Assembly: GCF_037335815.1 (NCBI RefSeq)
Contig: NZ_CP147841.1
Coordinates: forward strand, 1,234,591-1,298,590
Source of the DNA: Salinirubellus litoreus
GTDB lineage: Archaea; Halobacteriota; Halobacteria; Halobacteriales; Haloarculaceae
DNA: 64,000 nucleotides
Reading direction: 5' to 3'
A program made the translations under genes and the position numbers. A model generated the notes under the pieces. That model was not told where the DNA came from and ran no database searches. It saw only the letters and a list, made by a program, of their open reading frames with translations. Shown here one piece after another: positions 2,699-26,487 of this stretch. Each line of letters begins with the position of its first letter. The stretch's first letter is position 1.

Positions 2699-4054
2699 CT
2701 ACACCAGCGGCGTCCCGTCCGCCCGTGGACCGAGCATCGGGCCGTGTGGGCCGTCGCCCTCGACTACGCGGCGGGTCTCGTAGTCCGTCGAGCGCTCGAC
2801 CGGGACGCGACCGATGGCCCGGATCATGTCGACGTACTCCTCCACGGAACGGAACTCCCCGTGCTCCCCGCCCGCGCGCTTGGTGATCTCCTCGGAGAGG
2901 ATGGTCCCCATGAAGTCGTCGGCACCGCAGGAGAGCAGCTTCAGCCCGCGGGCGTCGCCGTACTTCACCCACGAGGACTGGACGTGCTCGACGTTGTCGA
3001 GGTAGAGCCGCGAGACGGCGATCATCAGCTCGTCCTCGGCGTGACTGGCCCCATCCGAGACGAGCCCGCGGTCGTACAGCGGCGTGTCGTGGTGGACGAA
3101 CGAGAGCGGAACGAACTCCGTGATCGCTCCCGTCCGGTCCTGTAAATCCCGTATCCGGTCGAGGTGCATCACCCGGTGCATCTCGTTCTCGACGTGGCCG
3201 TACATGATCGTCGAGGTCGTGGGGAGCCCGACGTTCGCCGCGGCCTCCATCGCCTCGAGCCACTCCGCGGTGTCGATCTTCCCCGGACAGATGACCTCGC
3301 GCACCTCGTCGACGAGTATCTCCGCTGCGGTACCTGGAACGGAATCGAGTCCGGCCTCCTTCAGCGTCCCGTAGATCTCCTCGTAGGAGCGGTCGGTCCC
3401 CCGGCGGGCGTGGTAGGCCTCCTCGGGCGTCATCGAGTGGAGGTGGACGCCACCCACACTCATCGCCTCCATCTGCTCGACGTACGTCCCGGGGTCGACC
3501 TCGTACGCCTCCGGGGGTCGGTAGTTCGGCGGGTCGGCCATCGATTCGAGCCACTCGCGGTGGTCCGAATCGAGGACGAACGCGGGGTGGAGCCCCGAGA
3601 CCGACGTCACCTCGTAGATGCCCCGACCGAGGTGTTCCTCGACGATCTCCCGGGCCTCGGCCGGCGTCTTCGTGAACCCGCCGTCGCCGTGCTCGCCGTC
3701 GTACCCCTCCTCGAACGAGCCGGCGGGGTCCTTGAAGTTACAGAACAGACACCCCGTGTTGCAGGCCGTGGTGACGTTGTTGTTGAGGTTGACGACGAAC
3801 GTGACCTCCTCGCCGACGACCTCGGCCCGCCGGCGGTCCGCGGCCTCCAGAACCCGTTCCTTGCGTCGCGGATCGATCCCCTCGACGTCGGTTCCGGTGG
3901 TCATGAGTTCGACGCCGTCGGCGACGGTCAGCCGCTCGCCCGCGCGGGCCCTCGCAAGCGCGTCCTCGAACGACTGGTCGGTCTCGGGGACGTGTTCGAA
4001 GTCGAACTCCCCCCGCGGAACGTTTGTCCGTGCCGACGTCTCGAACGCGTCCAT
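2699..4054 (-). CDS. cofH: radical SAM FO synthase subunit CofH (7,8-didemethyl-8-hydroxy-5-deazariboflavin synthase subunit 2)
   Basis: CNTGCLFCNF radical-SAM cysteine motif, ~450 aa, archaeal F420 pathway; ATG (MDAFETS) at complement 4052-4054, GTG alternative at 4069. Confidence 0.65.
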   Translation of the reverse strand: MDAFETSARTNVPRGEFDFEHVPETDQSFEDALARARAGERLTVADGVELMTTGTDVEGIDPRRKERVLEAADRRRAEVVGEEVTFVVNLNNNVTTACNTGCLFCNFKDPAGSFEEGYDGEHGDGGFTKTPAEAREIVEEHLGRGIYEVTSVSGLHPAFVLDSDHREWLESMADPPNYRPPEAYEVDPGTYVEQMEAMSVGGVHLHSMTPEEAYHARRGTDRSYEEIYGTLKEAGLDSVPGTAAEILVDEVREVICPGKIDTAEWLEAMEAAANVGLPTTSTIMYGHVENEMHRVMHLDRIRDLQDRTGAITEFVPLSFVHHDTPLYDRGLVSDGASHAEDELMIAVSRLYLDNVEHVQSSWVKYGDARGLKLLSCGADDFMGTILSEEITKRAGGEHGEFRSVEEYVDMIRAIGRVPVERSTDYETRRVVEGDGPHGPMLGPRADGTPLV

Positions 4055-4074
4055 ACCCCCTCCGTTCACCTGAA

Positions 4075-4090
4075 GGGTAAAAACCCACCG
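4075..4090 (-). promoter_or_regulatory. putative TATA-like promoter element (coding-strand GGGTTTTTAC) about 23 nt upstream of cofH ATG; same architecture upstream of glycosyltransferase gene at 5193-5205
   Basis: ttttta-like box centred about -27 from ATG, consistent with leaderless haloarchaeal transcripts; motif CCGGT..GGGTTTTT(A/G) shared by both upstream regions. Confidence 0.3.
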
Positions 4091-4129
4091 GCGTCGGCGA
4101 GCTCGTTCGTGGGTCCCCGCTCACCGTCG

Positions 4130-5170
4130 CTACTCCGCGCCGGCCTCCCGGTAGCAGTCGAGCCACCGCTCGGCGATCGCCCCCCGATCGAACGCCTCGA
4201 AGGAGTCGTCGAACGTCCACTCCGGATAGTCGCCCGCGTCGACGATGGCGTCCTCGATCTCCTCGGGCGTCGTCGCACGGAACCCCCGCTCGCGCCGCTC
4301 GACGAGTTCGTGGGCCGCCGAGTCCTCCTGGTACTCGACGATACCCACGCAGCCGCAGGCCATCGCCCACAGCAGCTCCGTCGCGAACGGCTCCCACGTC
4401 GCGGTGTGGACGAAGACGTGAGCGGCCCGGTAGCGCGCGATGCGTTCCTCCCGCGAGAGGTCGCCGACGAACGTCACGCGGTCGTCGATACGGAGGTCCG
4501 CGACCTGCGCCTCGTAGGCCTCGCGCTCGGGACCGTCGCCGATCACCGTCGCCGTCCAGTCCCGACCCCGGAGTTCGGCGAGCGCCAGAAATAGCGATCC
4601 GAGGTTGGCCGACCCGTCGAGGTGTCGTCCGGCGACGATGTCGGTCCCGCCGGCCGGCTCGGTCGAGTGGATCAGCGAGGTGTCGAGCATCTCCGGGACC
4701 ACCCGGGTTCGCTCCTCGCCCGCGCCGAATTCGCGCACCCACGTCTCGACCAGCCGCGAGGGGGCGACGACCCGGTCGCCGGCCCGGGCAGCCCGTCGGA
4801 TCAGTCGGCCGGTCGGATCGTCGCCGTACCAGTCGACGATCAGGGGGGCCCGTGCCAGCCGTGCGCCCGCCCTGGCGGCGAGGACGGCCGCCGGCGGGGC
4901 CGGCCGCGCGTGGACGACGTCGGGACGGTCGACGGCGAGCAGCCCCGCGATCCGCGAGACGAACGAGACGTCCGCCGGCGAGACCGTGACCGCCCGGTAG
5001 CGGACGCCCTCGCGCTCGCGGTACTCGTCGTAGCCATCCCACCACCCCGTACAGTAGACGGTGACCTCGTGGCCCCGTTCGGCGAGCTCGCGGGCCACCC
5101 GCTCGGTCCGGGCGACGCCGTCCCGGTCGACGTACCGGCCAGTCCGCGAGGCGACGACGACGACCTGCAT
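4130..5170 (-). CDS. glycosyltransferase family 4 (GT-B, RfaB-like)
   Basis: 346-aa ORF with two Rossmann-like halves, C-terminal EPFATELLWAMACGCVGIV motif typical of GT4 (E-x7-E region). Confidence 0.75.
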   Translation of the reverse strand: MQVVVVASRTGRYVDRDGVARTERVARELAERGHEVTVYCTGWWDGYDEYREREGVRYRAVTVSPADVSFVSRIAGLLAVDRPDVVHARPAPPAAVLAARAGARLARAPLIVDWYGDDPTGRLIRRAARAGDRVVAPSRLVETWVREFGAGEERTRVVPEMLDTSLIHSTEPAGGTDIVAGRHLDGSANLGSLFLALAELRGRDWTATVIGDGPEREAYEAQVADLRIDDRVTFVGDLSREERIARYRAAHVFVHTATWEPFATELLWAMACGCVGIVEYQEDSAAHELVERRERGFRATTPEEIEDAIVDAGDYPEWTFDDSFEAFDRGAIAERWLDCYREAGAE

Positions 5171-5410
5171 GCCGGTGGCTCCGAGGGGTCGGACAAAAAC
5201 CCAATCGACCGGCCCCGATCGAACGTCACCGCCTCTCGGAACGGCGTGCTGGATAGGGGGTGTTCGGCACGGGAGAGCGGTCCGGGTCTCTCACCGGTGT
5301 CGACGCTCGCCACCGAGCCCCCGAGATGAACGTCTCGGGGGCTGTGAGACGAGCTCACCCGGTCCCTGCAGGCCGTGCGGGTTTCCGTCTCCCGACCCTC
5401 GGTGTCACGT

Positions 5411-10773: not shown

Positions 10774-11463
10774 CTACGGATCGTCCCCCGAGAGCGGGGT
10801 TCCGTCGGGCCGTTTCGCCCCCTCCGAATCGTGGACCACGACGCCCTCGACGCCCGCCGGCTCGTAGTTCTCGCGGAGCGCGATGGCCTCCTCGACGTCG
10901 CGGACGGCCCGCTCCTTCAGCGCCCGGGCGAGATCCTCGGCGTCCTCGCGGGAGATGTCGCGTCCGAGCCCCTCGCACTCGTGGGCGCGTACAGGACCCT
11001 CGCGGTCGACGGCTTCGCCCATCGGCTGGCTCGCGGTCGCCAGGTCGACGCTGAACGGGTAGGTCCGACAGACCAGCGGCCGGGCGTCGTGGACGGTACA
11101 CGCGCCGGTTCCCTCGTCCTCCGTGTAGAACGTACAGTCCCCGCAGGCATCGGTCTGGAGCGCCCACTCCAGGGTCTCGCCCTCGGGGCCGTCGGCCCCT
11201 TCGTGGAGGCCGTAGGGCATCGGGCGGGCGACGTCCCGCCAGTCGTACTCGTGTTCGAACTCGGGGCTCTCGGCGGTGGCCCGCTGGAGGTTTCGTACTT
11301 CCTCGGGAAACACGGTCGCGGTGTGTTCGTCCCCAGCGTGGCCCTTGCAGCACGCCCCACAGCGCGTACACTCGAACCCGATGGTCTCGATGGCATCCGC
11401 GAGTTCCGAGACGTCGAGGTCCCGCGCCCGTTCGAGTTCGGCTTCGAGGCTCTGACCCGACAC
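10774..11463 (-). CDS. YkgJ-family (UPF0153) cysteine-cluster zinc/iron-chelating domain protein
   Basis: CTRCGACC plus further Cys clusters (CGDC, C..C); GTG start at 11461-11463. Confidence 0.65.
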   Translation of the reverse strand: MSGQSLEAELERARDLDVSELADAIETIGFECTRCGACCKGHAGDEHTATVFPEEVRNLQRATAESPEFEHEYDWRDVARPMPYGLHEGADGPEGETLEWALQTDACGDCTFYTEDEGTGACTVHDARPLVCRTYPFSVDLATASQPMGEAVDREGPVRAHECEGLGRDISREDAEDLARALKERAVRDVEEAIALRENYEPAGVEGVVVHDSEGAKRPDGTPLSGDDP

Positions 11464-11527
11464 ACCCTCGTTTCGGGTCGAACGCGAAAAGAGGTGTCGG
11501 GTGGCGAGTGGACGTGGAGTGTCGGGT

Positions 11528-11913
11528 GGGACTGAAAGGGGCCGGCGGTTCGGGGAAGGCGGGCGACGTAAGCACCGAAGCGGAGTGAGCGAAGCGAACG
11601 GAGCGAGGAGCGCAGCGAGCTCTGCTCGCGGGCCGAAGGCCCGCTCGCATGGTCCGCGGCGGCTTCGCCGCCGCGCTACCCCCGACCCGAACCGTCGGGG
11701 GCTTTCGGGGTGTTCTCATCGTTGGCAGCGGGGGAGACCACGACCACCTCGAAAGCCCCCGGTGGCTGGACTCGCGCGGAACACTCTGCGCTCCTCGGCC
11801 TTCGGCCTGCGGTGCTTGAGGCTCCGTGCTTCGTCCAGTCAGCGCGAGGCCGGCGGAGCCGGCCTCGAATGGTCGCGGCGGCGAAGCCGCCGCGCACGGC
11901 CCCTTTCAGTCCC
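11528..11913. repeat. 386-bp palindromic (head-to-head dimer) intergenic repeat element, family shared with 21010-21293 and 25537-25712
   Basis: Left terminus GGGACTGAAAGGGGCC (11528-11543) and inverted copy GGCCCCTTTCAGTCCC (11898-11913); inner CGGGGGCTTTCGGGGTG (11696-11712) and CACCTCGAAAGCCCCCG (11745-11761); internal hairpins CGGCGGC-TTC-GCCGCCG, GAGGCCGGC-TCC-GCCGGCCTC. Confidence 0.7.
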
Positions 11914-11963
11914 TCCCGACATCGGAGGCTATCGAACGCCGTCGCTGACCGAGACGACACGCC

Positions 11964-11970
11964 AAAAAAG
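11964..11970 (-). terminator. oligo-T tract (CTTTTTT on coding strand) 22 nt downstream of thermosome stop
   Basis: plus-strand AAAAAAG at 11964-11970; archaeal termination typically at oligo-T. Confidence 0.45.
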
Positions 11971-11991
11971 TGCGGAAGGTCGAAACGCCGT

Positions 11992-13572
11992 CTAGTTCGA
12001 CGCGATGACGTCGTCGATGCGGGCGATCATGGTGGCGGCCTCGGTGGCGCTCTCGATGGCCTCGCGCTTGACCGCCGCGGGGTCGAGGACGCCGTGCTCG
12101 ACGGGGTCGCCGATCTCGCCGGTCTGGCCGTGCGAGATGATGCCGGCGATGCCCTCGTTATCGTGGCGCGAGCGCAGGTCGACCAGCGCGTCGATGGGGT
12201 CCATACCCGTGTTCTCGGCGAGCGTGCGCGGGATGATGTCGATGGCGTCGGCGAACGCCTCGACGGCGAGCTGCTTGCGGCCCTCGATGCCGGCCGAGCC
12301 CTGACGGATGTGGTCCGCGATGGCGATCTCCGTCCCGCCGGCCCCGGGGACGACGCCGCCCTTGTCGAGCGCGGCGGTGACGACGTCGAGCGCGTCGTTG
12401 AGCGCGCGCTCGAGCTCGTCGGCGACGTGTTCGGTGCCGCCGCGGGCGAACACCGTCACCGATTCGGCGGCCGCGCCGCCCTCGACGAACGCGAGTTCGT
12501 CGTCGCCGAACTTCTCGACGCGGATGTGGTCGGCCCGGCCGAGGTCGTCGGATTCGAGGTCGTCGACGGAGCCGATGGTCTTCGCGCCGGTGGCCTTCGC
12601 GATGGACTTCGCATCGGAGTCACCGACCGACTCGAACGCGAGGATGTCCTGCTTGGCGAGGTAGGAGGCGACGCGGTCCTCGATGTCACCGGTGACGAAC
12701 GCGACGTCGACGCCCGCGTCGGCGACCTTCTCGGCGTAGCTCCGGAGCTCACCCTCCTCGGCCTCGATGGCGGCCTCGAGCTGGTCGACGCTCGTGATGT
12801 CGTACTCGGCGTCGATGTTGGATTCGCGAATTTCGAGGTCGAGGTCGAGCACCGCGACGGTGGCGTCCTCCACCGAGCGGGGCATGTCGTCGTGGACGGG
12901 CTCCTCGTCGACGATGACCCCCTGGACGAGTTCGGTCGCCGAGGACGAGGCCCCGGTCTGGGTCCGGACGGTGATGCTGTCGCGGTCGACGCCACTGTCG
13001 GTTCGGACCTGCTGGACGGCGGCGACGATGGTTTCCGCGAGCGCGTCGGCCTCGATGTCGCCCGTGCCCTTGCCGGTCATCGAGGACTCGGCGACGGACT
13101 CGAGGAGGTCGTCGTCGAGCTCCTCGTCGAGGGTGACGTCCTCGATGGCCTCCAGCGCGAGCTGTGCGGCCTCGTTGTACCCCTCGACGATGGTCGTCGG
13201 GTGGACGTCGTCCTCGAGGAGGTCCTCGGCCTGGACGAGGAGCTGACCCGCCAGCACCGACGCCGTGGTCGTCCCGTCGCCGACCTCCTCCTCCTGGGAG
13301 TCGGCGACCTCGACGATCATCTGGGCGGCGGGGTGCTCGATGTCCATCTTGTTGAGGATGGTCGCGCCGTCGTTCGTGATGACGACGTCGCCCGAGTCCG
13401 AGACGAGCATCTTGTCCATCCCTCGGGGGCCGAGCGTGGTCCGTACGGCCTCACTGACGGCTTTCCCGGCCTGGATGTTCGAGGACTGTGCGTCCTGCCC
13501 GCGTGTCCGCTGGGTGTCCTCCGCGAGGATGAACATCGGCTGACCGCCCATGCGCTGACGCTGTTGTGCCAT
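11992..13572 (-). CDS. ths: thermosome subunit (group II chaperonin, CCT/TCP-1 family)
   Basis: 526 aa; N-terminal ...[42 protein letters not shown]-binding motif, full equatorial/apical domains. Confidence 0.95.
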
Positions 13573-13597
13573 AATCGGTTCTTAATCGCCAGCGGTT

Positions 13598-13610
13598 CTA
13601 TATAAAACCT
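13598..13610 (-). promoter_or_regulatory. TATA box (coding strand TTTTATATAGA) about 28-31 nt upstream of thermosome ATG
   Basis: plus strand TCTATATAAAACC at 13598-13610; AT-rich island in GC-rich context; position fits leaderless haloarchaeal promoter. Confidence 0.55.
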
Positions 13611-13725
13611 TCTGAAACTGCCCCGGAGAACGACGGACGGCGGCGTGTGCCGACTGTTGGCACGGGACGGAACGACCCACGGAAGGGGCCCGGAACGGGT
13701 CGTCTCGCGAGACGGGCGAGTCGCC

Positions 13726-14502
13726 TTACGGCTCGACGATCTCGACCGGTTCGATCCCCCGCTCGGACAGTTCGGACTCGATCCGGTCCACCCGGGGGCC
13801 GATAGCGTCGGGTTCGTGGCTGTCCGTCCCGACCGTCACCTCGACACCGGCGTCGAGGAGGGCGTCGAGGAACGGGCTGTTCGGGTGGAGTTCGCCGTAC
13901 TCGTCGAGCGCCCGGCCGGCGTTGATCTCGGGGACGGTCCGCGAGTCGGCGAACGCCTCGGCCGCCCGCCGGTAGTGCTCGTCCGTCGCGAGCCCGCGGA
14001 ACGCGGGGTTCCGTTCGAGGAGGTCGGGGTGGGCGGCGATCTCGAACAGTTCGGCGTCGGCGAGCGCGACCAGCTTCTCGAAGTAGCGGTCGACGAGTTC
14101 GCGGCGCTCGGCCTCGGGCTTCTCCGCGAAGTACGACTCGACGTGGACGTTCACGCCGTCGAGGAAGTGGACGCTCCCGATGGCGTAGTCGAAGCCCGCC
14201 TCCTCGAGAAACGCCTCGATGGTCCCCTCGTCGTCGGGCTCGTAGTCCATCTCCACGGCGTCGAACACCCGGAGGTCGAACCGCTCGCCGATCCGCTCGA
14301 TACCCTCCCGTCGGCGCTCGTAGGTCAGGTCGAGGTTGAACCCCATCGCCTTCTTCCGGCTCGCCCGGCCCTCGTCGGTCGAGACGTTGCAGTGATCGGC
14401 GATGCCGACCGCGTCGAGGCCGGCGTCCTCCGCGGCGCGGCACATCGACCAGAGGAACGAGCCGTCCGAGTAGGTGGAGTGGGTGTGGTAGTCGGCGTTC
14501 AC
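13726..14502 (-). CDS. PHP domain protein (histidinol-phosphatase HisJ family-like)
   Basis: N-terminal HTHSTYSDG metal-binding motif, further His/Asp ligands (GIADHCN, GSVHF, GTDSHEPD); GTG start. Confidence 0.7.
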   Translation of the reverse strand: MNADYHTHSTYSDGSFLWSMCRAAEDAGLDAVGIADHCNVSTDEGRASRKKAMGFNLDLTYERRREGIERIGERFDLRVFDAVEMDYEPDDEGTIEAFLEEAGFDYAIGSVHFLDGVNVHVESYFAEKPEAERRELVDRYFEKLVALADAELFEIAAHPDLLERNPAFRGLATDEHYRRAAEAFADSRTVPEINAGRALDEYGELHPNSPFLDALLDAGVEVTVGTDSHEPDAIGPRVDRIESELSERGIEPVEIVEP

Positions 14503-14548
14503 TGATCGTCGGGAGGGTCGGGACGGTTACGTACCTGTCGGCTTCCCG

Positions 14549-14974
14549 GTGGAACGGGCCACGCATAGCGAGATCCGGACGGATACGGGAGCTCCCGTTC
14601 GAGCCACGGTAACACCGGGCAAAGGTTCTATACCGGTCTCTCGCCTACGGACGGGCGTGCTCCGGAACCGGGAGGGGACGGCCGTCGACCCGGTGCCGTT
14701 CCTGGTCGTGAGCGGGCTCTCGCTCCTCGGGAGCCTCTCGTTCGTCCCGGTCTACTGTCTCACCCTGGGGCTCTCGATGCCCCTGTCGGTCGGTGTCGGC
14801 GGGGCGGTCTTCCTCTGTCTCTCTGCCGCCGCGTACTACCGGATGGTGTGGCGGGCCCTCCCGGATCTCCGGGGGGAGGTTCCCCCCGCTGTTCGCCTCC
14901 AGCGGCTCGTCTACGGCGCGCTCGCCGTCGCCGGCGTCCTCTCGCTGCTCACCCTCCTGCTTTTGTCGCGGTGA
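14549..14974 (+). CDS. hypothetical small membrane protein (true start possibly internal)
   Basis: three predicted TM helices (VPFLVVSGLSLLGSLSFVPVYCLTLGL, MPLSVGVGGAVFLCLSAAAYY, LVYGALAVAGVLSLLTLLLLS); N-terminal 30 codons look non-coding. Confidence 0.3.
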   Translation: MERATHSEIRTDTGAPVRATVTPGKGSIPVSRLRTGVLRNREGTAVDPVPFLVVSGLSLLGSLSFVPVYCLTLGLSMPLSVGVGGAVFLCLSAAAYYRMVWRALPDLRGEVPPAVRLQRLVYGALAVAGVLSLLTLLLLSR

Positions 14975-14988
14975 CCGGTACGGGAGGT

Positions 14989-15384
14989 ATGCGCGAGGTG
15001 GAGGTGTCGCGGTTCGTTCAGGCCCCGCCGGCCGCCGTCGAGCCGCTGCTCTCCCCCATCGGCCTGATGGACGCCGAGGGGAGCTTCGAGGTCCGGAACG
15101 TGAGCGACACCGACGGGGGGACGGAGGTCACAGTGGGAGGCTACGGGCTCGAACTCGTCTTCCGGTTCACCGAACGCGAGGACGGGATCGCCTACGAACA
15201 GGTATCGGGGCCGCTCGACGTCCTCGAAACGACGGTCACCTGTGCCCCGGAGAACGAGGGGACGCGACTCACCGCCCGGTCGCGGGTGGCCGTCGGCGGT
15301 CCCGAACTGATCGACCGACTCGCGGCGTGGAAGCGCCGCGGGGAACTCCGGCGGGCGCTCCGGGCCGTCGCGGACGCGGCCTGA
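14989..15384 (+). CDS. SRPBCC (polyketide cyclase/START-like) domain protein
   Basis: ATG at 14989 preceded by GGGAGG; 131 aa acidic protein MREVEVSRFVQAPPAAVEPLLSPIG... typical of SRPBCC fold. Confidence 0.55.
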   Translation: MREVEVSRFVQAPPAAVEPLLSPIGLMDAEGSFEVRNVSDTDGGTEVTVGGYGLELVFRFTEREDGIAYEQVSGPLDVLETTVTCAPENEGTRLTARSRVAVGGPELIDRLAAWKRRGELRRALRAVADAA

Positions 15385-15501
15385 ACTCCCCGACTCGACC
15401 TCCTCTCGCTGGCACTCCCTGCGGAGTCCTCTTTCCGTGGTTGTGCGTACGCCCCGCCCGTTCGCCCTGGTGTTTCAGGGCTGGAGAGGGTTTCTCCGGT
15501 C

Positions 15502-15726
15502 ATGGGCGTCCTCAGCACGCTGAAGGAGACCCTGCAGGCGTCGACGCAGTCGGGGAACCGCGGCGACGTCACGGAAGGCGAGTCGAAGGGTGCCTACTGG
15601 TGTCACGACTGCGACGAGCGCATCAGGGACGTGGACGCTCCCGGCGAGGGACCGCCTAACTGCCCGGACTGCGGCGGGGAGATGACGTTCGAGCGGTCGG
15701 TCGGGTCGACCGGCTGCGCCTGCTAA
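15502..15726 (+). CDS. small zinc-ribbon protein (CxxC...CxxC)
   Basis: 74 aa, CHDCDE ... CPDCGGE zinc-ribbon spacing, acidic, GC3-rich. Confidence 0.5.
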   Translation: MGVLSTLKETLQASTQSGNRGDVTEGESKGAYWCHDCDERIRDVDAPGEGPPNCPDCGGEMTFERSVGSTGCAC

Positions 15727-15736
15727 GTCGCCCACT

Positions 15737-16993
15737 CTACTCGAACGCCAGTTCCTCGCCCTCCGATTCGGGGAAGGGGTTCTCGAAGTCCGACCAGTCG
15801 GCGTCCATCTCGGCGTCGGTGAGCACGCAGTTCGCGAGCCGATCCCGGAGGCCGTCTTCGTCCATCCCGCGGCCGATGAGCACGAGTTCCGTCCGTCGGT
15901 CGCCCCACTCCTCGTTCCAGGGGAGGTCGGGTCGCATCCGCCGCTGGGTCTCCCGGCGCTCCTCGGGGAGCGCGGCGACCCAGTTCCCGCGCACCGTCAC
16001 CGCCCGGTACGACGGACCGACGCCGCTGTACCGCAGGGCGACGTCCTCGCGCCCGGCGACCCAGACGATACCCTTCGAGCGGATGACCGACTCCGGCAGG
16101 TCGGAGAGGAACGACGCGAACCGCCCGGGGTGGAGCGGCCGCTCGGATCGGAACGGGAACGACGTCACCCCGTAGGTCGACTGGGGATCGTGGTCGGCGT
16201 GGTCGTGGTCGTGTCCTTCCTCGTGGGCCTCGGCGTGTTCGAGCGCCCGCTTCCAGCCCTCGGTCTCGCTCACCGTGTCGTGGTCGAACAGCCCGGTATC
16301 CAGTACTGCGTCGAGGTCCACTTCCCCCCGGGTGACCCGGTACTGCCGGGCCTCGGGGTTGAGCGCCTCTAGGAGGTGCTCGGTCTCCTCGATGCCCTCC
16401 TCGTCGGCGACGTCGCACTTGTTGACGAGGAGGACATCCGCGCACTCTACCTGCCCGACGAGCAGGTCCGACAGCGGCCGGACCTCCCCCTCGCGTTCCG
16501 CCTGTCCCGGTCGCGTTCTCCGGATATCCTCGGTCGTGACCACCTCGTCGTCGGCGAGCGTCGACCGGAAGTTCGCCGCGTCGACCACGGTGACGAGCGT
16601 GTCGAGCCGGTACGGCGCGCTCGCGGGGCCGGTCGTGAAGAGCCGGGCGACCGGCGCGGGTTCGGAGATTCCCGAGGACTCGACGACGAGGTGGTCGAAG
16701 TCCCGGCGGCGGGCGAGTCGGCTCACCGCCACCTCCAGGTCGTCCCGGAGGTCACAGCAGATACACCCGTTCGAGAGTTCGGTGATGCCGTCCTCCCGAG
16801 CGTCGATCAGTTCGGCGTCGACGTTCACCGCACCCATGTCGTTGACGAGCACCGCGAGACGTCGGCCGTCGGCGTTCGACAGCAGGTGGTTGAGCGTCGT
16901 CGTCTTCCCGGCCCCGAGCGCCCCGCTGAACACCGTCACCGGGACGCCGTCGCCACCCGTCAGGCTCATGCTCGTCGTTCGGGCCTCGCTCAC
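15737..16993 (-). CDS. CobW/COG0523 G3E-family GTPase (metallochaperone) with His-rich segment
   Basis: GALGAGKTT P-loop, GCICCDL metal-binding motif, HEEGHDHDHADHD His-rich linker, CobW C-terminal domain; alternative ATG at 16969. Confidence 0.8.
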   Translation of the reverse strand: MSEARTTSMSLTGGDGVPVTVFSGALGAGKTTTLNHLLSNADGRRLAVLVNDMGAVNVDAELIDAREDGITELSNGCICCDLRDDLEVAVSRLARRRDFDHLVVESSGISEPAPVARLFTTGPASAPYRLDTLVTVVDAANFRSTLADDEVVTTEDIRRTRPGQAEREGEVRPLSDLLVGQVECADVLLVNKCDVADEEGIEETEHLLEALNPEARQYRVTRGEVDLDAVLDTGLFDHDTVSETEGWKRALEHAEAHEEGHDHDHADHDPQSTYGVTSFPFRSERPLHPGRFASFLSDLPESVIRSKGIVWVAGREDVALRYSGVGPSYRAVTVRGNWVAALPEERRETQRRMRPDLPWNEEWGDRRTELVLIGRGMDEDGLRDRLANCVLTDAEMDADWSDFENPFPESEGEELAFE

Positions 16994-17071
16994 TTAGTGC
17001 TCGCGACCGGCGGTCGTGCGCGGCCCGCGGGCGGTCGACACGCTTTTTCGCCGAACGCCCCACGGGCGGGC

Positions 17072-17368
17072 ATGGACCTGGAAGCGCGTATCCGGGCGTT
17101 CCGGGCGGACCTGGAGGAGTGGCTCCGGGGGCTCTACCACGGGATGATCTCGCATCCGGCGTACGAACTCATCGAGAAGGAGGCCGAGGACCAGGAGGAC
17201 GCCTTCCTGCTGGCGTGCTTCCCCGACGCGTTCGGCATCCCGAGTCCCGTCTCGTACTACACCGCCGAACTGCTCCCGTACCTGGGCGAGGAGTTCGAGG
17301 GGTGGGAACGGCGGATGTGGGACCGCGAGTCGATGCTCGAACGCAAGGGCCAGCAGTACCACTTCTGA
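17072..17368 (+). CDS. small acidic hypothetical protein translationally coupled (TGATG) to ArsA-family ATPase
   Basis: ATG verified at 17072; 98 aa MDLEARIRAFRADLEEWLRGLYHGMISHPAYELIEKEAEDQEDAFLL...; stop TGA overlaps ATG of next gene at 17366-17370. Confidence 0.5.
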   Translation: MDLEARIRAFRADLEEWLRGLYHGMISHPAYELIEKEAEDQEDAFLLACFPDAFGIPSPVSYYTAELLPYLGEEFEGWERRMWDRESMLERKGQQYHF

Positions 17369-18366
17369 TGGACGGGACGGCGACGAACGAGGACGACGGG
17401 ATCGAGAAGTTCGTCTTCTTCGGCGGGAAGGGCGGCGTCGGCAAGACCACCGTTTCGAGCGCCTACGCCCACCGGTGTGCGACCAGCGGTATGGAGACGC
17501 TGCTGGTGTCGACGGACCCGGCACACAGCACCGCGGACGTGTTCGACCAGGCGTTCGACGACGACCCGACCCCCGTGGAGGGGTACGACTCGCTCTCGGT
17601 CATGGAGATCGACCCCGACGAGGCCGTCGACGAGCACCTGATGGAAATAAAGCGGACGATGGGCGACCAGGTGAGCCCCTCGATCGTCAACGAGATCGAC
17701 CGACAGATCGAGCTCGCCCACCGGACGCCGGGTGCCCACGAGGCGGCGCTGTTCGACCGGTTCATCGAGGTGATGCGCGGCGCGGACGAGTACGACCGCG
17801 TCGTCTTCGACACTTCGCCTACCGGAGGAACGCTTCGATTGCTCTCGCTCCCGGAGTACCTGGGCGGGTGGATCGACCGGCTCCTGAGCAAGCGCGAGGA
17901 GAGCGTGAGACTGTTCGAACGGGCGGCGCTGGGCGACCGCGAGCCACGGCGCTCCCGCGTGGGCGATCCCATCATCGCCCGGCTCCAGGGGCGAAAGGAG
18001 AATTTCGAGTTCGCGGGGGAGGTCCTCCGCGAGCGGGCGTCGTTCTACCTCGTCCTGAACCCCGACCAGCTCTCGATCCGCGAGACGCGGCGGGCGATCG
18101 ACTCGCTCCGCGAGCAGGACCTCGTGGTGTCGGGGCTGGTGATGAACCGGCTCACCCCCGAACCCGACGCCGAGGAGGACGGTCGCGGCGCGCGCTACCT
18201 GCGCGAGCGGGTCGAGACCGAGACCGAGCGGGTCCGGGAGGCCCGTGAGACGCTCGACCCGCCCGTCGTCGCGACCATCGAGACGCGCGTCCGCGAGGTC
18301 AAGGACGACCTGCTCGGAGCGGTCGCCGACGAGCTCGATATCGATATCGGCGTCGTCGCCAACTGA
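17368..18366 (+). CDS. ArsA/GET3-family anion-transporting / tail-anchored-protein-targeting ATPase
   Basis: GGKGGVGKTT deviant Walker A, DTSPTGGTLRLL (signature DTAPTGHT-like), 332 aa. Confidence 0.85.
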   Translation: MDGTATNEDDGIEKFVFFGGKGGVGKTTVSSAYAHRCATSGMETLLVSTDPAHSTADVFDQAFDDDPTPVEGYDSLSVMEIDPDEAVDEHLMEIKRTMGDQVSPSIVNEIDRQIELAHRTPGAHEAALFDRFIEVMRGADEYDRVVFDTSPTGGTLRLLSLPEYLGGWIDRLLSKREESVRLFERAALGDREPRRSRVGDPIIARLQGRKENFEFAGEVLRERASFYLVLNPDQLSIRETRRAIDSLREQDLVVSGLVMNRLTPEPDAEEDGRGARYLRERVETETERVREARETLDPPVVATIETRVREVKDDLLGAVADELDIDIGVVAN

Positions 18367-21009: not shown

Positions 21010-21293
21010 GGGACTGAAAGGGGCCGCGCGTGGCGGCTCCGCCGTGGTACGAGAGACGCGAAGCGTCTCTCGTCACTGAGCGAATCGGAGATTCGCGAGG
21101 TCTGCGAACGCGGCGCGTTCGCCCGATCACGAAACGGCTCCGCCGTTTCGAACGACCGCGACCGTTCGAGGCCGGCGTTGCCGGTCTCGCGCTGGCTCCG
21201 GTCGCGCGGCTCGCGGCGCTCCTCGCCTTCCTGCGGTCGGCTGCGGTGCTTACGTCGCCGTGCTTCCCGGAGCCAGCGGGGGCTTTCGAGGTG
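21010..21293. repeat. 284-bp monomer copy of the palindromic intergenic repeat family (see 11528-11913, 25537-25712)
   Basis: termini GGGACTGAAAGGGGCC (21010-21025) and CGGGGGCTTTCGAGGTG (21277-21293); interior collinear with reverse complement of right arm of element at 11.7 kb (ACCGTTCGAGGCCGGCGTTGCCGGTCTCGCGCTG, GCGGTGCTT) with a ~100-bp insertion. Confidence 0.7.
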
Positions 21294-21417
21294 CTCCTGT
21301 CTGAAGTGAGATTGCTGGAAACACCTCGGGAGTCCCCGACGCGACCTACTGTGGGCTCGGACGTTCGAACCCCCCACGAGGGCCAGAGCTAAGTTCCCAC
21401 GCGAATTGATAGCGCGT

Positions 21418-22471: not shown

Positions 22472-22499
22472 GCGCTTCTCGCGGGTCGCTTCGCTCCCC
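22472..22499. repeat. 28-bp inverted repeat, left copy (CGCTTCTCGCGGGTCGCTTCGCTCCCCG); partner at 23702-23729
   Basis: reverse complement of 23702-23729 matches 27/28; pair flanks M29 aminopeptidase gene. Confidence 0.6.
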
Positions 22500-22580
22500 G
22501 CTCGCTATGTGGAGACTCTCCCTTCGGTCGAGTCTCCCGCTTCCGAAACCTGTTTCCACCGACCACACGACGTGGTGAGC

Positions 22581-23660
22581 ATGGACCCGCGCATCCGCGA
22601 ACACGCAGAGGTCATCGTCGACCACTCCGTCGACCTGCAGGAGGGGGACAACGTCGTCGTCGTCGCGCCGTCGGTCGCCGAGGACCTCGTCGTCGCGCTC
22701 CACGAACTCATCGGGGACCGTGGCGCGAACCCGGTGTCGCTCGACGGCTCCACCCGCGCGGCCCGGGCGTTCATGCGGGCTTCGGACCCGGAGGACTTCG
22801 AGCTTCCGAGCCACCAGATGGCGCTCTACGAGGAGATGGACGCCTACATCGCCATCCGGGGGCAGACGAACGCGACCGAGACCAGCGACGTCGATCCCGA
22901 GATCATGGCCGCCCGCCAGCGGGCCCACCAGCCGATGCTCGACGAGCGTCTGGGGAAGCGCTGGGTCGGCACGCAGTTCCCCACGCAGGCACAGGCCCAG
23001 CTCGCCGAGATGTCCACCGAGGGCTACGAGAACTTCGTCTGGGACGCCACGATCAAGGACTGGGATGCGGTCCGCGAACACCAGGAACAGCTGGTCGAGA
23101 TCCTCGACCCCGCCGACGAGATCCGGATCGTCTCCGGCGAGACGACCGAGGTGACCATGAGCATCGCCGGCAACCCCTGTCTCAACGACTACGGCGAGAA
23201 GAACCTCCCCGGCGGGGAGGTCTTTACCGCACCCGTCCCCGACAGCGTCGAGGGCGAGGTGCTGTTCGACAAGCCCGTCTACCAGCAGGGTCGGGAGGTC
23301 AACGGTGCGAGGCTCGTCTTCGAGGACGGCGAGGTGGTCGACCACTCCGCCGAGAAGAACGAGGCGGTCCTGACGAGCATCCTGAACACCGACGAGGGCG
23401 CTCGTCGACTCGGGGAGCTCGGTATCGGGATGAACCGCTCGATCGATCAGTTCACGTACAACATGCTGTTCGACGAGAAAATGGGCGACACGGTCCACAT
23501 GGCGACCGGCAGAGCCTACGAGGACACGGTGGGCGAGGGCAACGAGCGCAACGACTCGGCGACCCACGTCGACATGATCGTCGACATGAGTGAGGACTCG
23601 TTCATTGAGGTCGACGGCGAAGTGGTGCAACGGGACGGGACGTTCGTGTTCGAGGAGTGA
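22581..23660 (+). CDS. M29 family aminopeptidase (aminopeptidase T/PepS-like)
   Basis: ATG verified at 22581; 359 aa with MATGRAYEDTVGEGNERNDSATHVDMIVDM C-terminal metal-binding region typical of M29 (AmpS/AmpT). Confidence 0.75.
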   Translation: MDPRIREHAEVIVDHSVDLQEGDNVVVVAPSVAEDLVVALHELIGDRGANPVSLDGSTRAARAFMRASDPEDFELPSHQMALYEEMDAYIAIRGQTNATETSDVDPEIMAARQRAHQPMLDERLGKRWVGTQFPTQAQAQLAEMSTEGYENFVWDATIKDWDAVREHQEQLVEILDPADEIRIVSGETTEVTMSIAGNPCLNDYGEKNLPGGEVFTAPVPDSVEGEVLFDKPVYQQGREVNGARLVFEDGEVVDHSAEKNEAVLTSILNTDEGARRLGELGIGMNRSIDQFTYNMLFDEKMGDTVHMATGRAYEDTVGEGNERNDSATHVDMIVDMSEDSFIEVDGEVVQRDGTFVFEE

Positions 23661-23701
23661 GTGGCCGTAGCGACCGTAGGGAGCGAGGCCTCTGTACCGA
23701 A

Positions 23702-23729
23702 CGGGGAGCGGAGCGACCCGCGAGAAGCG
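23702..23729. repeat. 28-bp inverted repeat, right copy (CGGGGAGCGGAGCGACCCGCGAGAAGCG)
   Basis: see 22472-22499; also lies within a ~50-nt imperfect direct repeat (23653-23705 vs 23799-23850) that duplicates the gene's terminal TTCGAGGAGT(G/A)AGTGGCC. Confidence 0.6.
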
Positions 23730-23865
23730 TGAGGCGCTCGCTCCACTCGCGCCTCGGAGATACGAGCGGCGACCAGCGGGAGCCGCGAGTATGGATTCGA
23801 GGAGTAGAGTGGCCCGAGCGAAGCGAGTGAGGCCCTCACCGAACGGCGAGGCGTCGCTCGGCGCG

Positions 23866-24230: not shown

Positions 24231-24305
24231 CGAGCACGGTGGGATTCGAACCCACGGCCATCGGATTAGAAGTCCGACGCTCTGTCCTAGCTGAGCTACG
24301 TGCCC
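24231..24305 (-). tRNA. tRNA-Arg (anticodon UCU)
   Basis: reverse complement GGGCACGTAGCTCAGCTAGGACAGAGCGTCGGACTTCTAATCCGATGGCCGTGGGTTCGAATCCCACCGTGCTCG folds as cloverleaf: 7-bp acceptor stem, D-loop AGCTAGG, anticodon loop CU-UCU-AA, T-loop GTTCGAATC; no encoded CCA. Confidence 0.9.
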
Positions 24306-24452: not shown

Positions 24453-25502
24453 GTGCAGACCACCCACGAGGTCCACGTCGGGGACGCCCGCGATCTCTCA
24501 CTCCCCGACGACTCGATCGAACTCGTCGTCACCTCGCCGCCGTACCCGATGATCGAGATGTGGGACGCGTCGTTCGCGGCGCAGGACTCCCGGATCCGCG
24601 ACGCGCTCTCGGCGGAGGAGGGCGACCGGGCGTTCGACCTGATGCACGACCTGCTCGACGACGCGTGGGCCGAGGTCGCCCGTGTGCTCGTCCCCGGCGG
24701 AATCGCGGTCGTGAACGTGGGTGATGCGACCCGGACGGTCGGTGACACCTTCTCCCAGTACCCGAACCACGTCGAGATTACCCGGAGACTCCGCGGACAC
24801 GGGCTCTCGGCGCTCCCCGATATCGTCTGGCGCAAGCCGACGAACTCGGCGGCGAAGTTCATGGGCAGCGGGATGCTCCCGCCGAACGCCTACCCGACCC
24901 TCGAACACGAGCATCTCCTGGTGTTCCGGAACGGCGACACCCGCTCGTTCCCGCCCGGCGACGACGCCCGGTACGGGTCGGCCTACTTCTGGGAGGAGCG
25001 AAACGAGTGGTTCTCGGACCTCTGGGAGATCACCGGGACGCGCCAGTCCCTCCCCGGCGAGGTCCGGGCACGCTCGGGGGCGTTCCCGCTCGACCTCCCG
25101 CTGCGGCTGGTGCTGATGTTCTCCGTCTACGGCGACACCGTACTCGACCCCTTCTGGGGGACCGGGACGACCTCGATGGCGGCGCTCGTCGCCGGACGGA
25201 ACTCCGCGGGCGTCGAGCGCGAACCCGATCTGGTGGGGGCGTTCGCCGAGCGGGTCGGCGAGGCTCCCCGCATCTCGGAGGCGTTGGCGACCGAGCGACT
25301 GGATCGCCACCGGGAGTTCGTGACCGAGCGGCGGTCGGACGGTGGGGAGCCGGGATACGAGGCCGAACACTACGACTTTCCGGTGGTCACGAAACAGGAG
25401 CGGTCGATCCAGCTTCGGGTCGTCGAGTCGGTCGGGCGAGAGAACACCGATGGCGAGGAGGACGCGACGAACCGATGGGTGGCCCAGCACGTGACGATGT
25501 AG
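24453..25502 (+). CDS. beta-class DNA methyltransferase (N4-cytosine/N6-adenine type; probable orphan, Zim/CTAG-MTase-like)
   Basis: motif IV TSPPYP near N-terminus followed by motif I DPFWGTGTT near residue 230 (circular permutation class beta); no adjacent restriction endonuclease; GTG start. Confidence 0.8.
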   Translation: MQTTHEVHVGDARDLSLPDDSIELVVTSPPYPMIEMWDASFAAQDSRIRDALSAEEGDRAFDLMHDLLDDAWAEVARVLVPGGIAVVNVGDATRTVGDTFSQYPNHVEITRRLRGHGLSALPDIVWRKPTNSAAKFMGSGMLPPNAYPTLEHEHLLVFRNGDTRSFPPGDDARYGSAYFWEERNEWFSDLWEITGTRQSLPGEVRARSGAFPLDLPLRLVLMFSVYGDTVLDPFWGTGTTSMAALVAGRNSAGVEREPDLVGAFAERVGEAPRISEALATERLDRHREFVTERRSDGGEPGYEAEHYDFPVVTKQERSIQLRVVESVGRENTDGEEDATNRWVAQHVTM

Positions 25503-25536
25503 GGGCCAGTGCGTGCTACTTCGGATACGTCTGCAA

Positions 25537-25712
25537 CACCTCGAAAGCCCCGAGTCGCTAGGGGAAGGCGGACGACGCGGGGACCGCAGGCCGAAGGCAG
25601 AGGAGCGCAACGACCCGGAAGCCGAGCGAGACGGCTTTGCCGTCTCGCTGGCCGTGCGAACGGGCGGCTTTGCCGCCCGTGAGCAGACGTAGCCGTCGGG
25701 GGCTTTCGAGGT
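25537..25712. repeat. 176-bp compact copy of the palindromic intergenic repeat family with perfect 16-17-bp terminal inverted repeats
   Basis: CACCTCGAAAGCCCCG (25537-25552) ... CGGGGGCTTTCGAGGTG (25696-25712); interior GGGGAAGGCGGACGACG, CCGAAGGC, GAGGAGCGCA, hairpin CGGGCGG-CTTTG-CCGCCCG homologous to left arm of 11.5-kb element. Confidence 0.7.
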
Positions 25713-25809
25713 GTTCCCAACTGCTGTCGCGGCTCACGACTCGTAGGCGATGCACCACCCTCACGAAACCCCACGCGCTTTAGTCGGGACCTCACGAAAC
25801 CCACCGTAC

Positions 25810-26487
25810 ATGGACCTCTCGTTCGACGAGTTCGTCCTCGCGGCGGCCACCGCCGACCTCTCCGAGGAGCCGGCGGCCCGCGAGCACGCCGACTGCGTCG
25901 AGTTCCGGATGGACCTCGCCGGAGGTGACCCGCTCGATGCTCTCTCGGGATACGACGGGGAGCTCCCGCTGCTCGTCACCGATCGCCCGGAGTGGGAGGG
26001 TGGCGAGGCGGCCGACGAGGGCCGGATCGAGGACCTCGTCGCGGCGGTCGAGCACGAGGCCGTCGCGGCGGTCGACGTCGAACTCCACGAGGTGGCCGGC
26101 GGGGACGGCCTCGACGTCGTGGAGGCCGCCCGGGAGTCGGGGACGAAAGTGGTCGTCTCGGTCCACGACTTCGAGGGGACGCCGCCACGGAGCGAGCTCC
26201 GGCGGCTCGTCGAGCGGGCGAGCGAGTACGGCGACGTCGCGAAGCTCGCGGTCACGGCCGAGAGCCCCGACGACACGCTCGCGCTGCTGGCGGTGACGCG
26301 GGCGCACGCCTCCGCGGGGCGAACGCTGGCGACGATGGCGATGGGCGAGGCCGGTCGGCACACGCGCGTCGTCGCGCCGCTGTACGGTTCCCGGATCGGC
26401 TACGCGCCGGTCGACCCGTCGCGGGCGACCGCGCCCGGCCAGTACGAGCTCGGGACGCTCTCGCGGCTGGTCGACGAACTCCGCTGA
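25810..26487 (+). CDS. aroD: 3-dehydroquinate dehydratase type I
   Basis: ATG verified at 25810; 225 aa; conserved catalytic Lys/His context (VEFRMD, VSVHDFEGTP, AKLAVTA) typical of AroD. Confidence 0.85.
   Translation: MDLSFDEFVLAAATADLSEEPAAREHADCVEFRMDLAGGDPLDALSGYDGELPLLVTDRPEWEGGEAADEGRIEDLVAAVEHEAVAAVDVELHEVAGGDGLDVVEAARESGTKVVVSVHDFEGTPPRSELRRLVERASEYGDVAKLAVTAESPDDTLALLAVTRAHASAGRTLATMAMGEAGRHTRVVAPLYGSRIGYAPVDPSRATAPGQYELGTLSRLVDELR

Follow-up and report, generated by a model that had tools for sequence, protein, structure and literature searches.

A palindromic element upstream of aroD in Salinirubellus litoreus as a probable relic of a haloarchaeal family of interspersed repeats

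The spacer upstream of the aroD gene of Salinirubellus litoreus holds a short palindromic element (positions 25537–25713) that is probably a rearranged relic, one unit long, of a non-coding family of palindromic interspersed repeats, which is widespread in the class Halobacteria. The element is part of the window analyzed here—64,000 nucleotides of high-GC sequence from contig NZ_CP147841.1 (assembly GCF_037335815.1, positions 1,234,591–1,298,590)—and lies between the gene of an N6/N4 DNA methyltransferase (24453–25502) and aroD (25810–26487), whose product has its nearest named relatives in Natronomonas species (71–75% identity). Judged by its sequence features, the family is most likely a selfish repeat of the MITE (miniature inverted-repeat transposable element) or short-mobile-repeat kind. 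Loci in other genomes are denoted below by an L and a number, and feature coordinates are collected in Table 1.

The original prediction described a compact copy of panhandle or MITE-like architecture that ends at 25712 and is closed by perfectly complementary termini of 16 and 17 nucleotides. The architecture is confirmed: a perfect 15-bp inverted repeat encloses two perfect triloop hairpins. The element ends, however, at 25713, which gives a length of 177 bp, and perfect pairing covers the 15 bp of CACCTCGAAAGCCCC and GGGGCTTTCGAGGTG, while the 16-mer and 17-mer are not exact complements owing to one extra C/G. When up to three mismatches are allowed, the end motif is matched 6 times in the window versus 1.2 expected matches—a count that is reached in 0 of 100 shuffles. 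The folding z-scores of the copy against shuffled sequences are -6.5 for the plus strand and -8.7 for the minus strand. Hereby, the copy shows several marks of a MITE, being small, non-coding, multi-copy, and bordered by terminal inverted repeats.

The predicted kinship with the copies at 11.5 kb also stands, as both belong to the same repeat family. In total, the window bears five units in three loci, and within these loci fall seven of the eight perfect hairpins of the window that combine a stem of at least 9 bp with a 3-nt loop. The other window copies carry a second end type, box A (GGGACTGAAAGGGGC). The copy at 21010–21293 is followed on its 3' side by a degenerate B box (21322–21337).

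A scan for the B box in one genome per species returned chance matches in bacteria and a set of haloarchaeal loci. Exact matches mark at least about 30 haloarchaeal loci, with B(+)...B(-) pairs 109–481 nt apart, in genera that include Haloplanus, Halonotius, Haloparvum, Halomarina, Halomicrococcus, Natrinema, Natronorubrum, Natronobiforma, Halovalidus, Haladaptatus, Natronomonas, and Halobacterium. From the 37 units extracted from haloarchaeal loci, a minimal canonical unit of about 110 nt (109–118 nt) can be described. It consists of box A, a 12-nt arm, a core module M (..CGACGCAAGCAC..variable..GAGGAGCGCAGCGAG..), the complementary arm, and box B'. The consensus of box A is cGGGYGGGACTGAAAGGGGC and that of box B' is GGGGCTTTCGAGGTGttc or GGGGCTTTCGAGGTG. 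Read inward, both unit ends start with CT(C)GAAAG and differ as GGGGC versus GCCCC, so that the unit folds into one rod-like hairpin, in which the outer helix (TGAAAG/CTTTCG) and the GGG/GGG mismatch loop next to it are both invariant, while the complementary arms that come after them are variable. Box and arm together form an end repeat of about 27 nt with a GGGG/CCCC mismatch.

These units, each of about 100–230 nt, occur singly or, more usually, as inverted doublets. In the usual doublet, B..A' is followed by A..B' after a linker of 31–35 nt (47–51 nt from A-box start to A-box start); in the other type, A..B' is followed by B..A' after ~32 nt, with B'–B linkers of about 28–33 nt overall. 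The A and B boxes are near-invariant across several haloarchaeal families, and their polarity is fixed: the G tracts lie on one strand, and M points the same way in nearly every unit. An arm–core–arm' segment that is inverted relative to the A/B boxes was seen in two units only, at 21190–21278 of the window and in L045 (2825–2941), a pattern consistent with the segment having been turned around through recombination between the inverted arms.

When 15 units were used to build a covariance model, it gave 45 hits at E ≤ 0.001, all of them in haloarchaeal loci, and 0 hits in 9 bacterial control loci; the unit on plasmid pHV4 of Haloferax volcanii reaches 94 bits. With a canonical doublet as query, 97 haloarchaeal plasmid records match, among them H. 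volcanii pHV4 and Halobacterium salinarum, and of the matches listed, 29 of 30 plasmid records carry no annotation under the match. The window copy, on the other hand, scores only 14 bits in the covariance model, and blastn with this copy as query against plasmid records returned nothing—it is too rearranged to serve as a query. A literature search by motif and by related element classes, with ISfinder and HaloLex outside its scope, found no description of the family. This suggests that the family is undescribed, with a prior annotation in ISfinder or HaloLex being possible.

Why the window copy deviates that strongly from the canonical unit can be approached from its arms and its orthologous loci. 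Its left arm belongs to type GACTCGCTGGAG and its right arm to type GCAGACGTAGC, which L007 also has. These do not pair, and the copy is hence marked as a chimera of two units. The same spacer with conserved outer flanks is found in L127—a metagenomic relative with 92% identical AroD—in which B-TCCTGC-A', a collapsed unit, is followed by 35 nt of linker, a full unit with box A, and a degenerate B'. In three closer relatives with 98% identical AroD (L124–126), the spacer is 145 nt shorter and holds a remnant of ~100 nt with a degenerate B' (GGAGACTTCGAAGTATCC). The doublet in L127 and the remnant in L124–126 imply an insertion that is older than these lineages and has been decaying differently in each. 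The left flank of both the window copy and L127 retains a remnant that reads AGTG..TTC(A/G)G.(T/G)A., and the first ~17 nt past B' in the window copy resemble the outer segment of Haloplanus copies. The window copy probably arose from an ancestral doublet by a deletion between its two units, leaving a collapsed B...B' derivative. Such a deletion would explain the two B-type ends, the non-matching arms, and the score of 14 bits. The 25.5-kb copy looks like a decaying relic and not like a working gene or RNA.

Just downstream of the element, the motif CCTCACGAAACCC occurs twice before the aroD start, as predicted, in the forms CCTCACGAAACCCCAC (25759–25774) and CCTCACGAAACCCACC (25790–25805), 31 nt apart. 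These boxes resemble box B (CCTCGAAAGCCCC; CCTC-GAAAG-CCCC). They are nevertheless no part of the element, since relatives with a different or reduced element have kept them: L124 has an identical segment CGAAACCCCACGCGCTTTAGTCG and L127 has it with one base changed, though the upstream element differs in all three. Between the two boxes lies the TATA-like CTTTAG (25778–25783), about 29 nt upstream of the aroD ATG (25810)—the spacing expected for a leaderless haloarchaeal promoter. The boxes are probably host promoter sequence of aroD with a repeated regulator site, and the element would accordingly be placed outside this promoter, with no demonstrated function at the locus.

Table 1. Features of the window copy, its flanks, further copies, flanking duplications, and second-subfamily members
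Feature	Location	Strand	Remarks
Left end box, B type	25537..25551	+	CACCTCGAAAGCCCC; canonical units have box A here
Degenerate left arm and core module M	25553..25617	+	arm GAGTCGCTAGG, related to common type GACTCGCTGGAG; M GGGGAAGGCGGACGACG..GGACCGCAGGCCGAAGGCAGAGGAGCGCAACGA
Nested perfect hairpin 1	25625..25649	+	AGCGAGACGGC-TTT-GCCGTCTCGCT; 11-bp stem, TTT loop
Nested perfect hairpin 2 (cited in the original prediction)	25660..25680	+	ACGGGCGGC-TTT-GCCGCCCGT; 9-bp stem, TTT loop
Right arm	25683..25698	+	GCAGACGTAGCCGTCG; no complementarity to left arm
Right end box B'	25699..25713	+	GGGGCTTTCGAGGTG; perfect 15-bp pairing with left box
Left outer flank, degenerate remnant of outer terminal repeat	25508..25536	+	AGTG..TTCGGATAC; compare AGTGTTCAGATAC in Haloplanus L077; common to orthologous L127
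Right outer flank	25714..25747	+	TTCCCAACTGCTGTCGCGGCTCACGACTCGTAGG; orthologous to L127 and L124 flanks
Family copy, unit A..B'	11528..11712	+	two nested hairpins
Family copy, unit A..B'	11745..11913	-	with 11528..11712 unit forms doublet A..B' (32 nt) B..A'
Family copy, A..B'	21010..21293	+	five nested hairpins; arm-M-arm' core inverted; covariance-model match 21190-21278, minus strand
Flanking direct duplications, Haloplanus sp. C73	L099; L113; L057; L053		TCGCTTGGG; CGAGACGG; ATTCTGACG; GTGTGTG
Flanking duplication, Halonotius	L089		CAGCCAGATC; same outer repeat
Second-subfamily members	L014; L051 2303-2420; L055 874-1002; L085 248-432; L094 6760-6872		

The pace at which such units are remodeled is best seen 3' of the thermosome gene. 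There, the window, L150/151 (99% amino acid identity), and L154/L153 (96–97%) have ~90% identical flanks up to the outer A boxes. Between these boxes, they differ completely: the arms are GCTGACTGGAC in the window, CGCGTGCTCGAC in L150/151, and CGACCGATACGC in L154/L153; the nested hairpins are different or missing, the 32-nt linkers differ, and the second unit of L154 is collapsed to CATCTCGAAAG|TCCCACCCGA. Hence, interiors are replaced much faster than flanks diverge, and the boxes persist. This turnover is compatible with ectopic conversion between copies or with repeated site-specific re-insertion, but not with paired point mutation. For a selfish repeat, ectopic recombination or conversion via the homology of boxes and M would be the process that swaps unit interiors.

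This mode of change bears on the covariation that had been read from a single pair of hairpins. The second nested hairpin of the window copy had been set against the hairpin CGCGGCGGC-TTC-GCCGCCGCG of the 11.5-kb copy (11655–11675, mirrored at 11874–11894), with three differing stem positions that all keep pairing. Both hairpins are real—a near-identical stem to that of the window copy is present in L077 and a related one in L007—but their positional homology cannot be shown, and the observation that differing positions all pair holds for any two perfect hairpins and depends on the alignment. At orthologous loci in relatives of 96–99% identity, nested hairpins and arms are swapped wholesale or missing and not altered through paired point mutation. 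The cited pair is therefore uninformative with respect to a selected structure.

A maintained hairpin is supported on the level of the family instead, where the compensatory changes that were to be expected among many copies do appear. In 26 distinct units from many genomes, the 12-bp arms are 98% paired, and all 12 pairs show two-sided changes. Compensatory cells in the arms amount to 120, whereas shuffling yields 35 and sliding the partner column no more than 32. Hardly any one-sided (G:U) states occur, with about 2% G:U in the arms. In the RNAalifold consensus, pairing continues through the core (helices P2–P4), with compensatory changes in 19 of 32 pairs. These counts do not represent independent events, as the arm types are few and common to several genera (GACTCGCTGGAG, CGGCGTCTCGGC, CGCGTGCTCGAC). 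Paired changes also occur within one arm type, namely GAGTCGCTGGAG/CTCCAGCGACTC in L020 and GCCTCG../..CGAGGC in L075. Family-level covariation thus supports a hairpin that is selected or templated.

In addition to the arms, units grow by nested perfect mini-hairpins. The 40 distinct nested hairpins comprise 380 pairs with 4% G:T; their loops are nearly all of 3 nt with GC..GC closure, most commonly GAA/TTC, TTT, GGA/TCC, and AGA/TCT. Many contain GCGAAGC/GCTTCGC, and d(GCGAAGC) is a classic, unusually stable DNA mini-hairpin. Nested hairpin types combine a conserved base with a variable top, such as GTTCAC-stem-loop-stem-GTGAGC or CCAGAAC..GTTCTGG. A 62-nt module of two hairpins (GTTC-hp1-TCATCA-hp2-GAAC) is found at one point of M (GAGGAGCG^CAGCGAG) in Haloplanus and in L150, a relative from the Haloarculaceae, with differing stems.

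Whether such structures act as RNA or as cruciform DNA had been left to choose. A structured RNA—either a small RNA gene or an element that acts in cis on an mRNA, for instance as a 3' stabilizer or terminator, with covariation resulting from selection on the RNA fold—would agree with the strong covariation, the stable fold, the conserved unpaired nucleotides, and a core whose polarity with respect to the boxes is fixed. In the window, two of the three loci also lie 3' of a gene. The third, however, lies between divergent gene starts (the neighbors of the window loci are thermosome, CxxCxxCC, DUF8052/DUF8007, N6_N4 methyltransferase, and aroD genes), and units occur in both orientations and as inverted doublets. 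G:U pairs are nearly lacking, and the loops are of 3 nt instead of tetraloops. Rfam returned only tRNA-Arg at the gathering threshold in the window and only noise at E ≤ 10 across 11400–12000. No oligo-T tract is present at the units, and no AT-rich TATA element was seen by eye in the GC-rich linkers, for which no promoter scan was run. The collapse or replacement of orthologous copies is a further point against an RNA, which we regard as unlikely. The near-exclusive Watson–Crick pairing and the triloops, together with the orientations, doublets, divergent-start locus, and missing RNA signals, favor hairpins that would act as DNA, either single-stranded or cruciform.

The selfish-repeat reading draws its mobility evidence from Haloplanus and Halonotius. 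Doublets of Haloplanus sp. C73 bear about 35 nt extra per side, which end in an inverted repeat ..AGTGTTCAGATWAGCG. On account of these outer terminal repeats and of target duplications of 7–10 bp (Table 1), the Haloplanus and Halonotius doublets are true MITEs. The family would hereby spread as selfish DNA, with a trans-acting transposase moving the MITE form.

A number of observations weigh against this reading. A flanking direct repeat was sought at the window copy and the two other window loci, and none was found. No partner transposase was identified, with no search aimed at a parent insertion sequence (IS), since the outer repeat AGTGTTCAGATWAGCG is too short for a specific scan. A clean empty site is missing at the orthologous sites in relatives, all of which carry a doublet, a remnant, or a collapsed unit. 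Moreover, near-invariant A and B boxes across families and a fixed polarity exceed the needs of a decaying selfish element and suggest that a dedicated protein or a function specific to one strand might be involved. The strict complementarity in spite of arm diversity requires selection for pairing or templating, both of which are proposals.

A dedicated protein acting on folded single-stranded DNA would account for both box invariance and arm complementarity. Units could be the recognition sites of such a protein—an archaeal counterpart of the repetitive extragenic palindromic (REP) or bacterial interspersed mosaic element (BIME) sequences with their REP-associated tyrosine transposases (RAYT), or in form of integron attC sites—which would drive a cassette-like replacement of interiors. 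The layout of outer helix, unpaired spacer, inner helix, and variable terminal structure is in line with this, as are boxes that are invariant across families beside arms that vary under strict pairing, and the two alternating, BIME-like linker types between inverted units. Different arm types occupy one site in 96–99% identical relatives, and identical arms (CGCGTGCTCGAC) are found in the distant taxa L044 and L150. On the contrary, no recombinase or Y1 transposase was found beside any unit, neither the REP tag GTAG/CGTC nor the attC core GTTRRRY is present, the neighbors are housekeeping genes with no gene-cassette organization, and copies decay at orthologous sites. The mobile elements near two of the loci, described below, do not supply a partner either: the IS110 element near the pHV4 copy begins about 150 nt off, and the TnpB element of L128 lacks such boxes. 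Recognition sites of this kind are hence a possible, albeit rather improbable, reading. Its most specific form is somewhat speculative: A/B boxes, GGG/GGG loop, and structure-only arms might be the folded single-stranded DNA site of a dedicated haloarchaeal recombinase or domesticated transposase, which would swap interiors between loci and seed nested hairpins, including in Haloferax volcanii.

Box A (TGAAAGGGG) also loosely recalls the G-string type of origin recognition boxes (ORBs), the binding sites of Orc1/Cdc6, of which TAACAGCGGAAACAGTGGGGTGGGGGGGT is a published ORB-like example. This likeness is superficial, consisting of a GAAA motif with G's after it. The two cannot be aligned, and a long G-string is lacking; three loci fall within 15 kb, and a single genome holds many. 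No orc/cdc6 gene is called in the window between ~15.8 and 36.5 kb, which covers two of the three loci, and no AT-rich unwinding element occurs in the sequences read. An origin-related role was rejected on these grounds and is very improbable.

Links of the family to known mobile elements were also considered. On pHV4 (12300–17409, L122), two oppositely oriented IS110-family elements, ISHvo9 and ISHvo10, are found no more than 2.5 kb from the unit. Comparison of ISHvo9-like copies sets the boundary of ISHvo9 about 150 nt from box A', and the proximity is taken as a coincidence. Near aroD in L128, an 89% relative, a TnpB (Cas12f1-like) gene follows a DUF7575 gene downstream of aroD and precedes the DHQS gene (3876–5153); this element bears neither A nor B boxes at its ends, and an origin of the boxes as IS605/TnpB ends was dismissed. 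The same holds for the boundary of a tRNA-linked island: the methyltransferase gene adjoins tRNA-Arg(TCT) (24231–24305), and the element lies 5' of this tRNA, so it is no attachment (att) site of it. For viral carriage, 20 exact box A matches were found in IMG/VR contigs, none of which is followed by B', making all of them chance matches.

The surroundings of the methyltransferase gene differ among close relatives. A ParE-like toxin gene precedes it in place of the peptidase gene (L124, 295–591), and the methyltransferase gene itself is absent in L128, which suggests a variable and possibly mobile neighborhood. In the window, a 35-nt inverted repeat (91% complementary; 22473–22507 and 23695–23729) brackets the peptidase M29 gene. 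The spacer 3' of this gene (23660–23860) holds many GAGCGA-rich hairpins that resemble core and second-subfamily sequences, and a weak covariance-model match of 20.6 bits lies at 23627–23724. At 5316–5343, a perfect 11-bp hairpin AGCCCCCGAGA-TGAACG-TCTCGGGGGCT with CCACCG just before it resembles a B/B' box pair without TCGAA; it could be related to the family as a minimal or decayed form.

Elsewhere, further variants were observed. A second subfamily has the same A/B boxes around an unrelated interior, with arms CCGCTCGCG/CGCGAGCGG and ..GAGCGACCGCGAGC.. (members in Table 1). In Haloparvum sp. PAK95 (L090, 3671–4120), a canonical unit precedes ~115-nt repeats in tandem array, each of which ends with a B'-like GGGGCTTTCTGGG and contains a TTTATAA box. 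Collapsed units, in which the two boxes are separated by 0–20 nt, occur in L083 (5534–5564), L116 (4675–4718), L127 (2160–2190), and L154 (~3640–3660), as exemplified by GGGACTGAAAG-AAGC-GGGGGCTTTCGAGGTG and by the L154 junction given above; these could be deletion products or empty target sites.

For the aroD locus alone, the result is modest: a decaying relic upstream of a promoter. If the family is indeed undescribed, it represents a class-wide, high-copy, and strongly structured repeat that occupies intergenic regions of the best-studied haloarchaea—on H. volcanii pHV4 and on Halobacterium plasmids, among others—and that genome and small-RNA analyses would have to mask or annotate. Local rearrangements and changes in promoter spacing may be further consequences.

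Among known systems, MITEs are alike in being small, non-coding, multi-copy, and intergenic with terminal inverted repeats, and the Haloplanus and Halonotius doublets share their target duplications. The window copy differs in bearing no such duplication. Where outer repeats are present, the conserved boxes lie internal to them, and the arms beside the boxes vary yet stay paired, unlike transposase-binding repeats. With REP, BIME, and REPIN (REP doublets forming hairpins) sequences, the family has intergenic imperfect palindromes, inverted units with two linker types (BIME), and hairpin-preserving variation in common; with enterobacterial repetitive intergenic consensus (ERIC) sequences or intergenic repeat units (IRU), it shares size variants by internal insertion or deletion at fixed sites. 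The archaeal host, the lacking GTAG/CGTC tag, a unit of ~110 nt instead of 20–40 nt, and DNA-like loops set it apart from the REP group, and no RAYT-like (Y1 transposase) gene was seen in the loci examined, with no genome-wide search made. Integron attC sites, which are read as folded single-stranded DNA, are similar in form only, with a conserved outer helix, an unpaired spacer, a structure-only inner helix, and a variable terminal structure; the R''/R' core (RYYYAAC / GTTRRRY), a cassette array, and a nearby integrase are missing here. Fungal and algal mitochondrial double-hairpin elements and GC clusters are short GC-rich hairpin modules that nest in non-coding DNA. They recall the 62-nt nested module, while neither their hosts nor their sequences are related.

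Of the described classes, the Haloquadratum "short mobile repeats" come closest, judged by their published description. HqIRS42, HqIRS43, and HqIRS55 of Haloquadratum walsbyi are non-coding elements of 103–122 bp in 26–54 copies, with prominent imperfect inverted terminal repeats (15/25 to 23/31) and no target duplication; alternative elements or opposite orientations occur at one site, they reportedly insert in near-terminal palindromes of IS605-type elements and palindrome-associated transposable elements (PATEs), and their mobilization mechanism was enigmatic to the authors (Dyall-Smith et al. 2011, PMC3119063). Canonical units of 109–118 nt with imperfect end repeats, no duplication, and high copy number agree with this type. 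In contrast, the window loci—a small sample—lie between ordinary genes and not in IS605-type elements or PATEs, and the one TnpB element examined, in L128, is devoid of boxes. The present family also spans many genera, and its invariant boxes, its covarying arms, and its nested hairpins have no counterpart in the descriptions of HqIRS. How short transposase-free archaeal repeats move, the question explicitly left open by the Haloquadratum authors, could be tested directly on these boxes and arms.

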